From an uncultured Victivallales bacterium (GTDB taxonomy: Bacteria > Verrucomicrobiota > Kiritimatiellia > UBA8416 > JABMPJ01): DNA of 64,000 nucleotides. The position numbers were made by a program, and so were the translations under genes. The notes under the pieces were generated by a model. The model ran no database searches. It had not been told where the DNA came from and saw only the letters and a list, made by a program, of their open reading frames with translations. Positions 3,999 to 62,131 of this stretch are shown piece after piece (within the stretch, counting starts at the first letter, position 1; every line of letters begins with the position of its first letter). The DNA lies in NCBI GenBank assembly GCA_964345005.1, contig CAYFPQ010000002.1, forward strand, positions 48,219-112,218, given 5' to 3'.

Positions 3999-4856
3999 TT
4001 AAACGCCACTATATGCTGCAAATCCGCCATCAACCGGGATCACTGTTCCGGTCACGAATCCCGCTCCCTGATCCGAGACCAGCCACAGAAGGGTTCCCAC
4101 GAGTTCCTCGGGAGTGCCGTAGCGGCCGAGGGGAGTCTGCCCGATGATCTGGCCGCCCCGTGCCGTTGGCGATCCATCTTCGTTCGTCAAGAGGGCGCGG
4201 TTCTGATCGGTCAGGAAGAATCCCGGTGCGATCGCGTTGACGCGAATTCCAACTTTCGACATGTGCACGGCGAGCCACTGCGTGAAGTTGCTGACTGCCG
4301 CCTTCGCGCCGCTGTAGGCCGGGATCTTGGTCAGGGGCGTGAATGCGTTCATCGACGAGGTATTGATGATAACTCCCCCACCCCGCTCGGCCATGCCGCG
4401 TGCGAATACCTGCGACGGAAGGAGTGTCCCGAGAAAGTTCAGATTGAATACGAATTCGATGCCGCCCGCATCCAGATCAAAGAACGTGGTGGCGTCGGAA
4501 TCGGCCTGCGCGAGCACTTCCCTGGTCAGGAACTCCATTGACGTCGTTCCCTTGGGATGGTTGCCCCCTGCCCCGTTGATCAGAATGTCGACCGGTCCCA
4601 GTTCGGCTTCGATCTTTCCGCGGGCTGCCTCCAGGCTGGCCGACTCGAGTACATTGCAGTCGACCCCGATTGCCGTGCCGCCGGCTCCGTTGATTTCGGT
4701 TGCCACGGCCTCCGCTGCTTCGAGGCGAAGGTCCGCCACAGCCACCTTGGCACCGCATTCGGCCAATGCCTTGGCCATGGTGCTGCAGAGAACACCCCCA
4801 CCCCCGGTCACGACCGCAGTCTTACCTTCCAGGTCAATATTGAACGGTACAGTCAT
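3999..4856 (-). CDS. SDR-family oxidoreductase (sugar/sugar-acid dehydrogenase-like)
   Basis: TGGGGVLG cofactor motif after MTVPFNIDLEGKTAVV, NGAGG motif and YSGAK catalytic Tyr-Lys; start moved to Met 4856 (ORF 4907) to avoid overlap with the upstream gene. Confidence 0.8.
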   Translation of the reverse strand: MTVPFNIDLEGKTAVVTGGGGVLCSTMAKALAECGAKVAVADLRLEAAEAVATEINGAGGTAIGVDCNVLESASLEAARGKIEAELGPVDILINGAGGNHPKGTTSMEFLTREVLAQADSDATTFFDLDAGGIEFVFNLNFLGTLLPSQVFARGMAERGGGVIINTSSMNAFTPLTKIPAYSGAKAAVSNFTQWLAVHMSKVGIRVNAIAPGFFLTDQNRALLTNEDGSPTARGGQIIGQTPLGRYGTPEELVGTLLWLVSDQGAGFVTGTVIPVDGGFAAYSGV

Positions 4857-4873
4857 TCGCTTTTCTCCCTTTT

Positions 4874-6181
4874 CTAAGCTTCCTCGAACCGGTTTCGCCA
4901 CGACCACAGGCCGATTGCGGGGTTCGAAATATAGAAAATCTCCTCGCCGTCATCCATGACATTGATACCGTCCTTCAGGTTCGCAGGATCGTAGCGTTCG
5001 AGCATGGCGTCGAGCGGTGCATAGTTGAAATTGACACTGCGGATCTCGTCTTCGCTTAGGTGACCGGGGCAGTACGTGATGGTGAAGCGCCCCTCTGAAG
5101 ACCCGTGAATGAGATGTGCGGCAGCGCTCAGGTTGTTACCCAGTTCAGGATGCTCCTTTAGAGCGGCCAGCACGGCTGGGGTTCCAATGTACCCATAGGC
5201 GCGAATCAGGCGGTCAATCTCCGCGTCCTCGCCAAACTCGCATACACCAGGCGCCAGCACAATCAACTCGCCATCGTCGGCAATGGCCATGCGCGTGCGA
5301 TAAACGCTCTTGTTGCCAAGCCAGGTGCTCTTGAATTCAGCGGGATCGAGATAGACCACCACTTTCTTGAGTGGCTCCTCTACCATTTCGAAATTCACCT
5401 TGAGCGAGAGCTCGGCGGCACGGTCGAAGCACTCGCGGCCGTCCCCGATGTAGAGCCCGCGGAGCTGGAGCTCCCCGGCATCGTCTCGCCCGATAACCGT
5501 CTGCACGTAAACAATGGGCAGGTCGGATGCAAAATGCTCACAGGCGTAGTCCAGTACCCGCCGCACGGGCGTATCGGCCCGCCCCATCATCCGTTCCATG
5601 CCGTAGGCCGCACCCAGGAAGTGGCTCTTGTTGATCCCTTCGGGTCCGCCCGTGCCGACGAAGACGTTCTTGCTGTGATTTGCCATGCCGATCACTTCAT
5701 GCGGCACCACTTGGCCGATGGAAATGATAAGGTCATGACCGCCATCGACCAGCAGATGGTCGACCTGTGCAGGCCAAGCATAGTCTACAGCGCCTTCCGA
5801 CACTTCGCGAAGAAACTCGGCCGGCACTTCACCCAGCGTGACAACACCACTGCGCCAGTCGTGCTCGCGGAACCGGTCGTGCGGAACGCCAGGAAACATC
5901 TCGTCAAGTTGCCCGGCCGTCATGGGCGTATGGGTTCCCAGGGCCGGGAGCACATCGACAAGGCGATCGCCGTAGTAATCGAAGGCAAACCGTGTGAACA
6001 TGCCGGCTTGAGAGTGAAAACGGGTGAAATCAGGCGGAATTGCCAAGACGCGATCACGACGTCCGAGCTGCTCGAGTACGCCCACGAGCGCCGCACGTGC
6101 TTCTTCCGGTGCGATTACATCTGCTTCTGATCCACGTTCGAAATAGAGCATAGCGCTTTTTCCTGTCGCGAAAGAACGCAA
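4874..6181 (-). CDS. LarA-like (lactate racemase family / DUF2088) alpha-hydroxyacid racemase/epimerase homolog
   Basis: 435 aa, size and layout of LarA; segment VVPHEVIGMANHSKNVFVGTGGPEGINKSHF resembles the LarA His/Lys pincer-cofactor region; call is from memory of the family. Confidence 0.45.
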   Translation of the reverse strand: MRSFATGKSAMLYFERGSEADVIAPEEARAALVGVLEQLGRRDRVLAIPPDFTRFHSQAGMFTRFAFDYYGDRLVDVLPALGTHTPMTAGQLDEMFPGVPHDRFREHDWRSGVVTLGEVPAEFLREVSEGAVDYAWPAQVDHLLVDGGHDLIISIGQVVPHEVIGMANHSKNVFVGTGGPEGINKSHFLGAAYGMERMMGRADTPVRRVLDYACEHFASDLPIVYVQTVIGRDDAGELQLRGLYIGDGRECFDRAAELSLKVNFEMVEEPLKKVVVYLDPAEFKSTWLGNKSVYRTRMAIADDGELIVLAPGVCEFGEDAEIDRLIRAYGYIGTPAVLAALKEHPELGNNLSAAAHLIHGSSEGRFTITYCPGHLSEDEIRSVNFNYAPLDAMLERYDPANLKDGINVMDDGEEIFYISNPAIGLWSWRNRFEEA

Positions 6182-6260
6182 TAAAACACAAAAACGAACA
6201 AGATGTCACGAAAAATCTACGCGTTATTATGTGGAAAGCCGCATGTTCAGCGTTGCTAAC

Positions 6261-6340
6261 GGCCCGCTCGGATAGCGGGCCCTTTACCATGGATCGCGCA
6301 ATACCGTGGGTTGGGTAGGGCCCGTTCTCCGAACGGGCCG
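6261..6340. repeat. REP-like palindromic element, two inverted units (copy A)
   Basis: unit1 ggcccgctcggatagcgggccctttacca (6261-6289) and inverted unit2 tgggtagggcccgttctccgaacgggccg (6312-6340); each unit is itself a hairpin; same family at 17521, 32415 and 62102. Confidence 0.65.
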
Positions 6341-6464: not shown

Positions 6465-7691
6465 ATGCCAATGAAATCTGGATTTGTTGAACGATTGATC
6501 GAGCGACTGGATCGTTTGGACCCGGAGAGTTTGCAGTCTCATTTTCTTCGCTTGGCGCAGGATCGAGGGCTCCTGGAAATGGTATTCCAATCAATCCAGG
6601 AGGGTGTCGTGGTGGTGGACAGCAGCGGGAACTTGGACTACGCGAATCGTGCGGCGGAACAGTTTCTGGGATTTGCGCTGGAATCTGAGCAGGGAAAACC
6701 GGTTTCGCGCTACTTGGGTGAGATCGACTGGGAGCGCATCTTGAGCTTGGACACGCAGGAGTGGTCAAGACTCGTCACGCGCGAGATCGAGATCACGTAT
6801 CCGGTGCAGCGTTTCTTAACATTCTACGTCGTGCCGATGCACCAGGATTCACTTGAGAGTACCGGTGCATTGGTGATTCTCCGGGACGTTACGCATGAGC
6901 GTGAGGAGGAAGCGACAACGCTGGAATCCGAGCGCATCAATGCCGTGAAGCTGCTGGCCGCTGGTGTCGCGCACGAGATTGGCAATCCGCTCAACGCACT
7001 GAACATCCACCTTCAACTGTTGGACCGCGAGATAGGGAAGATGCGGAAGGATGCGGATGGGGGAGCGTCGGCTGACTCCGAGGACTTGGGCTACCTGCAT
7101 GAGTTGACGGAGGTGGCACGTACGGAGGTGGGGCGGCTCGATCAGGTGATCACGCAATTCCTACAGGCCATCCGGCCAACCAGGCCGGATTTGGCTTCCG
7201 CACAGATCGAGATCCTGTTGGAGGATACGCTGACGTTGCTCAAGCAGGAGGTGCAGAACCGCAGCATCAGTATCGAGATTGATCGGCCCGACAAGTTGCC
7301 GCGGATCAGGGTCGATAGCGGCCAGATCAAACAGGTCTTCTTCAACGTCATCCGTAACGCGTTCCAAGCCATGCCGGATGGTGGGCAGCTCAAGATCGTA
7401 CTTTTCACAACGGACGAGTATCTCGGCATATCGTTCCGGGATTCGGGCGTGGGAATTCCGCCCGAGGAGTTCAGCCGCATCTTCGAACCCTATCACACGA
7501 CCAAGGCCAGCGGTTCGGGGCTGGGGCTGATGATTGTGCAGCGTATCGTGCAGGACCATGGCGGGCAGATCGAGGTGATGAGCAAGGCGGATGCCGGAAC
7601 CGGGTTCACCGTGTTGCTGCCGCTGGTTGAACGGAGCATCCGGTTGTTGGACGCGAAGGCGAGCAGGAAGAGAGGGAAGCGCAATGAGTGA
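6465..7691 (+). CDS. sensor histidine kinase (PAS + HisKA + HATPase_c), NtrB-like
   Basis: H-box AAGVAHEIGNPLNALNIHLQLL; N/G boxes (NVIRNAFQAM, DSGVGIP, GSGLGL); PAS-like N-terminus; 8-nt overlap with the downstream sigma-54 regulator. Confidence 0.88.
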   Translation: MPMKSGFVERLIERLDRLDPESLQSHFLRLAQDRGLLEMVFQSIQEGVVVVDSSGNLDYANRAAEQFLGFALESEQGKPVSRYLGEIDWERILSLDTQEWSRLVTREIEITYPVQRFLTFYVVPMHQDSLESTGALVILRDVTHEREEEATTLESERINAVKLLAAGVAHEIGNPLNALNIHLQLLDREIGKMRKDADGGASADSEDLGYLHELTEVARTEVGRLDQVITQFLQAIRPTRPDLASAQIEILLEDTLTLLKQEVQNRSISIEIDRPDKLPRIRVDSGQIKQVFFNVIRNAFQAMPDGGQLKIVLFTTDEYLGISFRDSGVGIPPEEFSRIFEPYHTTKASGSGLGLMIVQRIVQDHGGQIEVMSKADAGTGFTVLLPLVERSIRLLDAKASRKRGKRNE

Positions 7692-9096
7692 TATGAAACC
7701 TTCCATCTTGATTGTTGATGACGAGAAGAACACGCGCGATGGCCTCGAGCGGGCGTTGCGTCGGGAGTACCGGGTTAGAACGGCCGAAAGTGGCGATAGC
7801 GCACTCGAGCTGATGGCTAAGGATCCGCCCGATATCCTGCTGACGGATCTGCGCATGCCGGGTATAGACGGGCTGACACTGGTCCAGCGCGCCCTGGCAC
7901 GGCATCCGGCCCTCGTTTGCCTGTTACTCACCGCATACGGTTCGGTTGAAACGGCCGTCGAAGCGATGAAGCGCGGCGCGCACGACTACCTGACCAAGCC
8001 GGTGAATCTTGATGAGCTGGAGCTGGTGCTCAAGCGGGCATTACGATCGCAAAGGGTGGAGTCCGAGAACGCGAATCTGCATGAGCAGCTCGACGACAAG
8101 TACGGGTTGGAGAATATCATCGGGAATTCTCCTGCCATGTCTCAGCTCTTCGATACGATTCGCCAGGCAGCGCCGACGCAGGCTACCGTCCTCGTGCAGG
8201 GCGAGAGCGGCACGGGCAAGGAGCTGGTCGCGCATGCCGTGCATCGTCTCAGCGATCGGGCGCGTGGTCCGTTCGTCGCCGTTCATTGTGCGGCACTGTC
8301 GATGAATCTGCTCGAAAGCGAACTGTTCGGGCACGAGAAAGGGGCGTTCACCGGTGCCATGTCGAGGCGCAAGGGGCGTTTTGAGTTGGCAGATGGTGGA
8401 ACACTCTTTCTCGATGAGATATCTGAGATCGATGCATCGATCCAGGTGAAGCTGCTACGCGTGTTGGAGGAGCGCAAGTTCGAGCGGGTAGGGGGCGATG
8501 AAACGGTCGAGACCGATATCCGCCTCGTCACGGCAACGAACAAAGACCTGAAGCAGTTGGTCAAGGAAGGCAAGTTCAGGGAGGATCTCTTTTTCCGGCT
8601 CGACGTGGTCAATATCACGCTGCCGCCTCTGCGGGAGAGGGTGGGGGACGTGCCCATGTTGTGCGGCCACTTCCTGGAAGCGTTCAGCGTCAGTAACAAC
8701 CGCAAGATCAACGGCATCACACCGGATGCCGTTACCATGCTCTCGAACTACAACTGGCCGGGCAACGTGCGTGAACTCCGCAACACGATCGAGAAGATGG
8801 TGGTGCTCGGTCGCGGCGAGCGGCTGACAGCTCGCGATATTCCTGCGAACATCCGCGAAGCCGTGAAGGCCGCCGGGCCGGCCGTTGTACTCGCGACCGG
8901 CGACACGATGCACGGCGGCGACTCGCTTGCTGCCACAGAGCAGCGCATGATCATGGCCACGCTCAAGAAGCTGAACGGCAATCGAACGAAGGCCGCCGAA
9001 GAACTTGGCATCAGCCGGCGTACGCTCCACCGTAAGTTGAAGCAGTACGAAGAAGCTTCAGCGGCATCTTTCGATAGCGCGGAGGCAAGTGACTAG
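7684..9096 (+). CDS. sigma-54-dependent response regulator (NtrC/AtoC family)
   Basis: receiver domain (ILIVDDE...D...TDLRMPGIDG), AAA+ sigma-54 activator core (GESGTGKE, GAFTGA, ESELFGHEKGAFTGA) and C-terminal Fis-type HTH; start at MSDMKPS (ORF 7591 has an N-terminal extension). Confidence 0.92.
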   Translation: MSDMKPSILIVDDEKNTRDGLERALRREYRVRTAESGDSALELMAKDPPDILLTDLRMPGIDGLTLVQRALARHPALVCLLLTAYGSVETAVEAMKRGAHDYLTKPVNLDELELVLKRALRSQRVESENANLHEQLDDKYGLENIIGNSPAMSQLFDTIRQAAPTQATVLVQGESGTGKELVAHAVHRLSDRARGPFVAVHCAALSMNLLESELFGHEKGAFTGAMSRRKGRFELADGGTLFLDEISEIDASIQVKLLRVLEERKFERVGGDETVETDIRLVTATNKDLKQLVKEGKFREDLFFRLDVVNITLPPLRERVGDVPMLCGHFLEAFSVSNNRKINGITPDAVTMLSNYNWPGNVRELRNTIEKMVVLGRGERLTARDIPANIREAVKAAGPAVVLATGDTMHGGDSLAATEQRMIMATLKKLNGNRTKAAEELGISRRTLHRKLKQYEEASAASFDSAEASD

Positions 9097-9243
9097 TGTC
9101 GTGTCACGCTTGAAAAGATACGTAAACGCATTTCCTTGTCATCCCGAAGCTTGTCGAGGGATCTCTTGTAAACCAGTAACGTCTGAGATTCCTCGACTTC
9201 GCTCGGAATGACAGATTACCTAACGTTACTGGGTTGACACGAC
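9097..9243. ncRNA. candidate structured RNA / palindromic element (nested stems with pseudoknot complementarity)
   Basis: P1 tgtcgtgtc(9097-9105)/gacacgaca(9235-9243); P2 28-nt arms 9137-9164/9186-9213 with internal loop; 10-nt ccagtaacgt (9173-9182) in the P2 loop is exactly complementary to acgttactgg (9223-9232); strand and transcription unknown. Confidence 0.3.
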
Positions 9244-9280
9244 AGTAGCCGCGAAGTCACAGGGAACGCAGAAAGATGCA

Positions 9281-9320
9281 AAGAAGAAGGCGCAGGGCTG
9301 AAGCCCCGCGCCTTCTTCTT
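9281..9320. terminator. bidirectional intrinsic terminator hairpin
   Basis: aagaagaaggcgc-agggctgaagcccc-gcgccttcttctt: perfect 13-bp outer stem plus inner GGGCT/AGCCC, flanked by T-rich tracts on both strands, between convergent genes. Confidence 0.75.
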
Positions 9321-9339
9321 TCTGATCTTGTCCGAAGGC

Positions 9340-9966
9340 CTACGCGGCCAGCGACTTGGCCAGGTCGGCTGCCGAAGCGGCATCCGGCGCGTAGCCATCG
9401 GCACCGATCTCGTCGCAGAACGCCTGCGTTACCGGGGCGCCACCGATCATGACTTTGGTTTCTACGTCTGAGGCCTTCACCGCATCCACGACCGCTTTCA
9501 TGTTGGTCATGGTTGTCGTCAGCAGAGCGGATACACCGATCACGGACGCGTTGTTCTCCTGGGCGGCGTCGACGAACTTTTGCGGTTCGCAGTCGATACC
9601 CACGTCGACAACCTTGAACCCGGCGCCTTCGAGCATCATGCAGACAAGATTCTTGCCGATGTCGTGCAGGTCGCCCTTAACGGTGCCAACCACGGCCACA
9701 CCGACCGGCTCCACGCCGCTCTCTGCGAGCTTCGGCTGGAGGATCTCCATGCCGGACTTCATCGCACGGGCAGCGATCAGTACTTCGGGAACGTAGACCT
9801 CGTTCTTCTTGAAGCGCTCACCGATCACGCTCATGCCGGCCAGCAAACCGTCATTCAGCACTTCAGCCGGAGCGGTGCCGCCGTCCAGCGCCTGCACAAC
9901 CAACTCCTTCACATCGTTAGCCTTACCCTTCATCAGGTTTTCGGCAATGTCCTGCAATACACTCAT
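9340..9966 (-). CDS. cobalamin-binding corrinoid protein (B12-binding_2 helical cap + B12-binding Rossmann domain)
   Basis: DxHxxG motif (GDLHDIGKNLV), ...GVSAL...GG B12-binding signature; 208 aa, typical of methyltransferase-cognate corrinoid proteins. Confidence 0.8.
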   Translation of the reverse strand: MSVLQDIAENLMKGKANDVKELVVQALDGGTAPAEVLNDGLLAGMSVIGERFKKNEVYVPEVLIAARAMKSGMEILQPKLAESGVEPVGVAVVGTVKGDLHDIGKNLVCMMLEGAGFKVVDVGIDCEPQKFVDAAQENNASVIGVSALLTTTMTNMKAVVDAVKASDVETKVMIGGAPVTQAFCDEIGADGYAPDAASAADLAKSLAA

Positions 9967-17505: not shown

Positions 17506-17520
17506 TCAAACGTGGCTTGC

Positions 17521-17604
17521 GGCTCGCTCGGAGAGCTCGCCCTACCTCAGCTTGGGCAAGGTCCATCGTGGGTGAGGTAGGGCGAGCTGTCCCCAGCGAG
17601 CCGG
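17521..17604. repeat. REP-like palindromic element (copy B), probably also a terminator after mutY
   Basis: ggctcgctcggagagctcgccctacctca ... tgaggtagggcgagctgtccccagcgagccgg: 29-nt inverted arms around a 23-nt loop; units match the 6261/32415/62102 family. Confidence 0.65.
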
Positions 17605-32414: not shown

Positions 32415-32503
32415 CCGGTCCGCTCGGAGATCGGACCCTACCTCGCACACGACATTGCTCCGCCCAAAAAAGGTCAGGTAGGGCCCGCTCTCCGAGCGGG
32501 CCG
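32415..32503. repeat. REP-like palindromic element (copy C), two inverted units
   Basis: ccggtccgctcggagatcggaccctacctc (32415-32444) and inverted caggtagggcccgctctccgagcgggccg (32475-32503). Confidence 0.65.
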
Positions 32504-62101: not shown

Positions 62102-62131
62102 CCCGGCCCGCCCGGAGGTCGGGCCCTACCC
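62102..62131. repeat. REP-like unit (copy D, single unit)
   Basis: cccggcccgcccggaggtcgggccctaccc matches the GGCCCGCTCGGAGAnCGGGCCCTACC unit. Confidence 0.55.

Follow-up and report, generated by a model that had tools for sequence, protein, structure and literature searches.

What is the element of about 150 nt, built of nested stems, that fills part of the gap between a sigma-54-dependent response regulator (RR) gene and a convergent corrinoid protein gene in an uncultured Victivallales bacterium? The DNA analysed is a stretch of 64,000 nucleotides of contig CAYFPQ010000002.1, referred to below as the window, and an earlier note, made from the letters alone, had left three options: an RNA element, a palindrome resembling a MITE (miniature inverted-repeat transposable element), or a protein-binding site. 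A DNA palindrome or protein site comes closest, and the RNA option found no support. We consider it quite probable that the element consists of two inverted copies, with no gene between them, of the Ssn-related motif (SRM), a hairpin repeat similar to the Neisseria repeat NTS, and that it belongs to the level of DNA rather than RNA.

The pairings reported for the element are real and above chance. The outer stem has a core of ten consecutive pairs between TGTCGTGTCA (9097-9106) and TGACACGACA (9235-9244) and in full reaches 13 of 14 pairs over 9093-9106 and 9235-9248, overlapping the RR stop codon; the earlier note had recognized this pairing but had misplaced the 3' arm gacacgaca, which occupies 9236-9244 and not 9235-9243. 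The inner stem (9137-9164 with 9186-9213) pairs at 22 of its 28 positions, as had been claimed, when 21 Watson-Crick pairs and one G-T are counted. The 10-mers CCAGTAACGT (9173-9182) and ACGTTACTGG (9223-9232) are indeed perfect complements, and their pairing lengthens to 12 of 13 positions over 9170-9182 and 9223-9235. Folding of 9093-9248 as plus-strand RNA gave -59.5 kcal/mol (z = -5.85) and folding of the minus strand as DNA gave z = -3.68, with 0 of 200 shuffles as good in both cases.

A dispersed hairpin unit in the inner-stem arms

The inner stem is formed by a unit of about 28 nt, TGTCAT-YCC-GA-(apex)-GA-GGR-ATCTC, that is present twice in opposite orientation, one copy per arm. Both copies fit the pattern GTCATYCCGA(N4-8)CGAGGRATCT, once per strand, with no further match in the 64 kb. 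Scans for this pattern gave 90 stretches in IMG/VR and, in the genomes of GTDB species, at least 120. Among the GTDB matches listed, the unit is spread over nearly every bacterial phylum, its hosts including Acidobacteriota, Chloroflexota, Bacteroidota, Planctomycetota, Verrucomicrobiota, Kiritimatiellia, Firmicutes, Proteobacteria, Gemmatimonadota and Nitrospirota, as well as one metagenome-assembled genome (MAG) of the Patescibacteria (candidate phyla radiation; Komeilibacteria) and one of the Nanoarchaeota (DPANN). About 44% of the units have an inverted partner no more than 160 nt away, and the remainder are singlets. When the 161-nt element was compared by BLAST with all fetched loci, the two arms matched, and the loop, the spacers, the 10-mers and the outer stem never did; the possibility, raised in the earlier note, that the entire 150 nt is dispersed in many identical copies thus does not hold, as only the arms repeat. 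A full-text literature search returned no occurrence of the unit sequence itself.

Variation among the copies reveals which pairing is maintained. At unit positions 6 and -5 (n = 252), T/A was observed 152 times, C/G 98 times, C/A twice and T/G never. In a second sample, consisting of loci fetched by way of a neighbouring protein and hence unbiased with respect to the repeat, the three variable stem pairs were Watson-Crick in 159 of 168 cases, and at least eight triplet types occurred (CCC/GGG, CCT/AGG, TCT/AGA, TCC/GGA, GCT/AGC, GTC/GAC, TTC/GAA and GCC/GGC). Across 121 inverted pairs in forward-reverse order, pairing within the units amounted to 98.1% versus 75.1% from arm to arm at the same positions, and the triplets of the two paired units were identical in just 47 of the 121. 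Each unit is its own small hairpin, and it is on that hairpin that selection is visible, not on the arm-to-arm helix. Since pairing is maintained inside each unit rather than from arm to arm, the long inner helix arises as a consequence of two units lying in inverted orientation. The window provides an example: the plus-strand unit has internal CCC/GGG complementarity and the other unit has TCC/GGA, and these unlike triplets are the cause of the C.A and G.T irregularities in the apparent inner stem.

The consensus unit, AT-YCC-GA-GCGAAGC-GA-GGR-AT, combines a stem of 5 bp with a symmetric tandem G.A step and has GCGNAGC as its apex; the dominant apices in the protein-fetched loci are CGAAG, CGGAG, CGCAG and CGTAG. 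GCGNAGC is an exceptionally stable DNA mini-hairpin (PMC13037366). G-T combinations at the covarying pairs are nearly nil in both samples (0/252 and 3/168), which fits a constraint on DNA better than one on RNA. Conservation also extends to the flanks, where, across 228 singlets, T stands at -1 in 75% and at +1 in 95%. Some units at four loci (L025, L082, L092 and L012) are preceded by two to three tandem partial copies of the unit's 5' half (GTCATTCCGAG plus about 10 nt), a pattern that suggests slippage, or repeated cleavage and repair, 5' of the hairpin.

These observations bear directly on the headline of the earlier note, an H-type pseudoknot inside an enclosing helix, which as an RNA could be either a 3' untranslated element of the RR gene or a small RNA that ends at the downstream terminator. 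The strong predicted fold of the plus strand speaks for a structured RNA, as do the rarity by chance of a perfect 10-nt complementarity and the position between stop codon and terminator, where transcription together with the RR gene is probable. However, the arms alone recur, the orthologous locus described below has no element, base pairs are conserved within units and not between arms, and G-T pairs are nearly lacking. Rfam gave no match to the element at gathering or permissive thresholds (E up to 10), its only weak matches falling on the terminator, and the nuclease SsnA, introduced below, does not bind RNA (PMC11893778). Energetically, the 10-mer duplex is worth -14.1 kcal/mol, but a nested fold that contains this helix reaches -50.2 kcal/mol, about 9 kcal/mol worse than the minimum free energy of -59.5 kcal/mol. 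The 9-nt linker 9214-9222 would also probably be unable to span a 28-bp helix of A-form geometry, given a rise of about 2.8 Å per bp and at most about 6-7 Å per nt; the pseudoknot would therefore form only if the lower half of the inner stem melted. Beyond the window, the loop-to-flank complementarity is carried only by two metagenome contigs of a near-identical strain, which are identical to the window in the 10-mers and hence offer no variation that could speak for or against the helix. The headline was not borne out, and we regard a structured RNA as very unlikely.

GIY-YIG genes between inverted units

Open reading frames (ORFs) lying within 400 nt of the 252 units were clustered. The clusters consisted mostly of shared phage proteins, plus one small GIY-YIG family. 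In a Kiritimatiellae MAG (L115), a complete cassette reads GTCATTCCGAGCGAAGTCGAGGAATCTC-ATG, a 131-aa GIY-YIG ORF and GAGATCCCTCGACAAGCTCGGGATGAC, and on its minus strand the window reads GTCATTCCGAGCGAAGTCGAGGAATCTC-(19 nt)-GAGATCCCTCGACAAGCTTCGGGATGAC. The left arm of the window, 28 nt long, is identical to the unit directly 5' of the L115 start codon, and the right arms of the two loci differ by one base, an indel. Of all units, about 3% and 2% are of the two arm variants that the window has; the sharing of this asymmetric combination by the window and L115 therefore points to common descent. A locus of the Terriglobia (L170) has the same layout of unit, gene and inverted unit as L115, and both proteins match PF01541 GIY-YIG, the L115 ORF with E = 4e-11.

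The association was then approached from the protein side, by scanning metagenomes with the L115 and L170 proteins, which returned 80 homologue loci. A forward unit lay no more than 130 nt upstream of the gene in 27 of them and an inverted unit at or after its 3' end in 32; 17 loci had both and 42 had any. Under a strict count that demanded perfect complementarity of the internal triplet, the corresponding numbers were 22, 23, 12 and 33. Elsewhere in these loci the background was 0.115 units per kb, giving an enrichment of about 28-fold at the genes. Single-domain GIY-YIG genes flanked on both sides by inverted units, the arrangement expected of SRMs, are thus present in L115, in L170 and in 12-17 of the 80 loci.

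Such an arrangement is known from Neisseria, where the repeat NTS (CGTCATTCCCGCGMAVGCGGGAATCYRG) contains dRS3 as its palindromic core and the gene architecture is NTS-ssnA-NTS (Chenal et al., Nat Commun 2025, PMC11893778). The same work generalized NTS as SRMs across many phyla. SsnA is a 94-aa single-domain GIY-YIG protein (CDD cd10448) that binds the hairpin as single-stranded DNA only, and binds neither double-stranded DNA nor RNA nor the reverse strand. Its cut falls a few nucleotides upstream of the hairpin, cleavage depending on the three bases 5' of the palindrome and binding on the C directly 3' of it (PMC11893778). The biochemistry covers four Neisseria and Wolbachia homologues (PMC11893778).

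Canonical NTS-type units were fetched from IMG/VR to connect the two subtypes. One locus, L398, holds a canonical cassette (CGTCATTCCCGCGAAGGCGGGAATCCAG-gene-inverted copy), and its protein is 52% identical to that of L170 (E = 5e-28) and 43% identical to that of L115 (E = 9e-23). By sequence, the catalytic residues Y6, Y17 and E64 of SsnA are matched in the L170 protein by Y6, Y16 and E63. NCBIfam gave no match for the unit-associated nucleases, and their closest solved structure is UPF0213 BH0048 (E = 0.004). As for the repeat, the two units of the window have the form TGTC-AT(Y)CC...GG(R)AT-C-TC, that is, an oriented core with GTC on its 5' side and C on its 3' side, as in SRMs, and the frame TGTC-ATTCC...GGAAT-C is that of NTS. 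The frame, the cassettes and the homology to a protein flanked by NTS together lead us to read the window arms as SRM-type repeats of an Ssn system. Canonical NTS-type units (GTCATTCCCGCGNNNGCGGGAATC) were seen in more than 120 IMG/VR stretches (including L315 at 4724-5057, and L317), some in dense same-strand arrays; for one of these stretches, L320, 13 matches were counted, eight of them with listed positions, within 89-1186.

Several findings weigh against this assignment. The published SRM string, HGTCWYN(0-2)YYVSBRHN(0-5)WNVSBRGN(0-2)RNCYNB, has no match on either strand of the window and none among the 252 units of the CCGAG..CGAGG subtype, the canonical NTS matching as a control. No GIY-YIG gene or remnant was found in the 64-kb window, including in and around the loop, and only one doublet is present there. 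The SRM-repeat model leaves the 10-nt complementarity and the 13/14 outer stem unexplained, and the element may be transcribed within the 3' untranslated region of the RR gene with some side effect at the RNA level. The string was built from 29 genomes (PMC11893778), and the G.A step is what makes it fail on the present subtype. Of the 80 loci fetched through the protein it matches 11, and a generalized pattern, GTCAT-NNN-GA..GA-N'N'N'-AYC, matches 33-42. We treat the string as a heuristic and class the element as a sub-type of the known SRM kind.

A gene-less doublet may have arisen in two ways. The doublet could be what is left of an SRM-ssn-SRM cassette whose gene was lost by deletion, and the arms do keep the asymmetric variants of L115 (TCC with GCGAAGT, and CCC with GCTTGT), which indicates common descent. 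Yet neither the loop nor its surroundings retain any vestige of GIY-YIG coding sequence, and the loop does not clearly resemble the ends of the L115 gene. In the genome samples there are about 80 gene-less units for every cassette, and loop lengths cluster at 15-50 nt with no spread toward the size of a gene, suggesting that doublets propagate, or are created, as doublets. The excess of gene-less units and the narrow range of loop lengths lead us to favour spread of the doublet on its own, as a miniature without the gene, and we hold the decay of a cassette to be possible but doubtful.

Form alone might also place the element with REP (repetitive extragenic palindromic) sequences and REPINs mobilized by RAYT, an HUH Y1 transposase, or with classical MITEs derived from insertion sequences that encode a DDE transposase, since these are likewise short intergenic hairpin units occurring as singlets and inverted doublets. 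Against such an origin, the recurrent neighbour is a GIY-YIG nuclease, with no transposase family among the ORFs within 400 nt of the 252 units, and the unit begins with TGTCAT and has no GTAG or CGTC tag. There was no signal of target-site duplication at any fixed offset around the 228 singlets, and the full 150 nt is repeated nowhere in the samples. A REP/REPIN-RAYT assignment was rejected because GIY-YIG is the only family seen bracketed by units, and a MITE assignment because there is no direct-repeat signal and the arms recur without the spacers, the loop or the outer stem. We find an origin of either kind scarcely credible. A Y1_Tnp gene (PF01797, IS200/RAYT-like; L300 4933-5814, minus strand) adjoins the corrinoid/methyltransferase operon of a relative; it is the one such gene seen near a corrinoid operon of a relative, and no units surround it.

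Taken as a repeat of the Ssn kind, the element suggests the following course of events. Each unit of about 28 nt, TGTCAT-NNN-GA-apex-GA-N'N'N'-ATCTC, would fold alone as single-stranded DNA. In full cassettes the inverted units bracket a single-domain GIY-YIG gene of the putative Ssn family, coding for about 95-130 aa; in the window, 19 nt occupy the place of this gene. By analogy with SsnA, a cognate nuclease encoded elsewhere in the genome or the community could bind either strand whenever it is single-stranded, as during replication, transformation or repair. Cleavage might then take place a few nt to the 5' side of GTCAT, in the plus strand around 9128-9136 and in the minus strand around 9215-9223. 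The copy would have arrived recently in the lineage as a passenger between the RR stop codon and the corrinoid terminator, and the outer stem and the 10-nt complementarity would be local additions rather than features of the family.

The locus in relatives, its nested palindromes and its neighbours

A near-identical strain with the element is represented on two ENA metagenome contigs (L001 and L002), the sole difference being the apical segment of one unit, that of the plus strand. A true orthologous locus (L095) was recovered in which the RR, an AraC-type regulator and the corrinoid protein are 87%, 83% and 90% identical, in the same order and orientation; its spacer, about 135 nt long, is unrelated and unalignable and has no unit. 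The earlier note had held that its claim would be in difficulty if homologous loci in relatives lacked the complementary segments, and this ortholog lacks the element altogether. On another, short contig (L298), which encodes a corrinoid protein 91% identical to that of the window and carries no RR gene, the terminator and adjoining DNA are shared up to ...CTTCGCGG, and the homology ends at window position 9249, 1 nt outside the edge of the outer stem (9248). The remaining relatives have other downstream genes and no units.

The bidirectional terminator that had been placed beside the element at 9281..9320 is present, at 9280-9321, and is retained in four relatives (L095, L298, L299 and L096) with compensatory stem changes. 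Since it is kept across relatives with such changes, it belongs to the 3' end of the corrinoid gene and not to the repeat. The stem covaries as GCGCGGGGC/GCCCTGCGC versus GCACAAGGC/GCCTTGTGC (window 9280-9321; L095 2175-2212, L298 957-990, L299 664-698), a clean case of covariation in an intrinsic terminator.

The position of the element raises the question of whether the host has put it to use, as an additional transcription barrier or a stabilizer of the RR mRNA, or as a duplex to which a host protein binds. REP-type hairpins stabilize upstream mRNA in other bacteria, a precedent for such exaptation, and the outer stem begins inside the stop codon. Nevertheless, a strong conserved terminator already lies 31 nt past the end of the outer stem (9248), no T-run follows the stems of the element, and the ortholog manages without it. 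A host function of this kind seems unlikely to us.

The nested complementarity was compared with that of other doublets, whose loops measure 4-70 nt and have unrelated sequences. Loop-to-flank complementarity of at least 10 nt occurs in one of 82 short-loop doublets, that of the window, with about 0.2 expected from shuffles; a match of 9 nt is seen in two others, and for lengths of 9 nt and above shuffles predict about 0.5. When both 10-mers were sought as a pair in IMG/VR, one chance match turned up, inside a coding repeat. The 10-mer pair is real, statistically unusual and specific to this copy, and has no comparative support as an RNA helix. Outer stems of at least 9 nt are more general, being present in 10 of the 82 doublets versus 0.4 expected, with unrelated outer sequences and spacers of 10-25 nt to the units. 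Such stems may have come about by insertion into palindromes already present or by an inverted duplication of flanking sequence; single units, tested for flanking short inverted repeats as a sign of insertion into palindromes, showed no enrichment.

On the minus strand, the 10-mer pair brackets one unit as AACCCAGTAACGT-10 nt-unit-AG-ACGTTACTGGTTT, and, speculatively, the bracketing repeats may be taken for a 16-nt palindrome, CCAGTAACGTTACTGG, interrupted at its central ACGT. A bolder proposal would combine two statements, that the GA-type unit is a distinct and wider SRM subfamily with its own Ssn specificity and that the nesting records insertion of SRMs into the centres of palindromes; we consider this combination distinctly doubtful. 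If it were true, insertion into palindromes would supply the first trace, at the level of sequence, of the mobility of SRMs, which is so far only a hypothesis.

Two further repeat arrangements were encountered. On several Acidobacteria-like contigs, the SRM doublet stands inside a second conserved palindrome, approximately CACAGACTTnACAGGCTGCGGAAAAA ... TTTTTCCGCAGCCTGTnAAGTCTGTG (Table 1), which looks like a composite or nested repeat family. The window also contains a second, unrelated family of hairpin repeats, AGGGCCCGCTCNCCGAGCGGGCCG, with a 9-bp stem. Six copies occur at no more than three mismatches versus none expected; the family is denser in the window than the Ssn-type unit, and at two loci the copies form REPIN-like inverted doublets about 60 nt apart.

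Among the neighbouring genes, the homologues of the corrinoid protein, also named corrinoid proteins, come from Lentisphaerota and Kiritimatiellia MAGs. A histidine-kinase ORF (window 6465-7691) and the longest RR ORF (7591-9096) share about 100 nt. Translation of the RR probably begins downstream of 7591, since its receiver domain starts only at residue 39. The element would lie in the 3' untranslated region of the RR gene.

Table 1. Coordinates of the element, its surroundings and related repeats (window positions unless a locus is named).
Feature	Position	Strand	Basis or remark
Ssn-related hairpin unit TGTCAT-CCC-GA-AGCTTGT-CGA-GGG-ATCTC	9137..9165	+	corresponds to the 3'-side inverted repeat of a full cassette
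Ssn-related hairpin unit TGTCAT-TCC-GA-GCGAAGT-CGA-GGA-ATCTC	9185..9213	-	corresponds to the 5'-side repeat of a full cassette
Loop between inverted units	9166..9184		19 nt; holds 10-mer CCAGTAACGT; gene position of full cassettes (~300-nt ssn)
10-mer ACGTTACTGG	9223..9232		complement of 9173-9182; with it brackets the minus-strand unit; only at this locus
Outer stem 5' arm CTAGTGTCGTGTCA	9093..9106		locus-specific sequence
Outer stem 3' arm TGACACGACAGTAG	9235..9248		pairs with 9093-9106
RR stop codon TAG	9094-9096	+	sequence read directly
Sigma-54-dependent RR gene	7591..9096	+	Pfam Response_reg, Sigma54_activat, HTH_8
Bidirectional-type intrinsic terminator	9280..9321		20-nt arms, 95% complementary; A-run and T-run flank a GC-rich hairpin
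Corrinoid (B12-binding) protein gene	9340..9966	-	Pfam B12-binding, B12-binding_2; convergent with the RR gene
AGGGCCCGCTCNCCGAGCGGGCCG copies	6260-6283, 6317-6340, 17520-17543 (partner 17573-17592), 32416-32439, 32480-32503, 62104-62127	-, +, -, -, +, -	second hairpin family
SRM doublet in second palindrome	L029 2755-2944; L039 715-870; L147 6493-6680, 6707-6893; L072 12418-12491		

Significance and comparison with known systems

For annotation, the consequence is that no non-coding RNA is warranted here, although the fold resembles a regulatory RNA with a pseudoknot; the copy is better described as a selfish or domesticated DNA hairpin repeat. Conservation of pairing within units and not between them fits the recognition of a hairpin of single-stranded DNA. 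The Ssn/SRM system is extended here to the Planctomycetes-Verrucomicrobia-Chlamydiae (PVC) group and to a subtype that the published string misses, with doublets that are often nested in larger, unrelated palindromes. What is modestly new is this subtype outside the string, its very wide distribution, the constraint within units and the unexplained nesting. Such data may be of use in cataloguing Ssn specificities for single-stranded DNA tools and in asking whether SRM repeats are mobile.

Among physical motifs, the closest is the DNA mini-hairpin GCGNAGC. The consensus apex of the family, GAGCGAAGCGA, includes GCGAAGC, and GCGGAGC, GCGCAGC and GCGTAGC are also seen, whereas the apices of the window are degenerate (GCGAAGT and AGCTTGT), and the mini-hairpin is a physical motif, not a genetic element. 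Among repeats, dRS3 and the Neisseria intergenic mosaic elements (NIMEs) likewise place paired ATTCC(C)...GGGAAT inverted repeats around short variable intergenic segments. NIMEs are arrays confined to Neisseria; the window, in contrast, belongs to an unrelated phylum and has one doublet, whose stem interior is also different.

Two mobile systems share parts of the design. The subterminal hairpins of IS200/IS605 are imperfect DNA hairpins that are recognized in single-stranded form and cut at a set distance 5' of the hairpin, but here no TnpA or TnpB gene is present, and Ssn elements are not known to transpose. In the REPIN-RAYT system (Bertels & Rainey 2011, PMC3116915), two inverted hairpin units build a longer hairpin, one small nuclease or transposase gene is flanked by units, and gene-less copies are far commoner, as in the present case. 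The enzyme there is an HUH Y1 transposase and here a GIY-YIG nuclease; REPIN systems are mostly lineage-specific, whereas the Ssn-type unit is nearly identical across phyla.

The NTS/SRM-Ssn system (PMC11893778) differs from the element in the stem interior, which is CCGAG...CGAGG with a tandem G.A step in the present subtype and CCCGCG...GCGGG in NTS, and in that the window copy is gene-less and its host belongs to the PVC group (Kiritimatiellia/Lentisphaerota-like) and not to Neisseria. The two have in common an oriented hairpin repeat with the frame (C/T)GTCAT-TCC...GGA-ATC-Y, a mostly intergenic dispersal as singlets and inverted pairs, and GIY-YIG genes of about 95-130 aa bracketed by inverted units.

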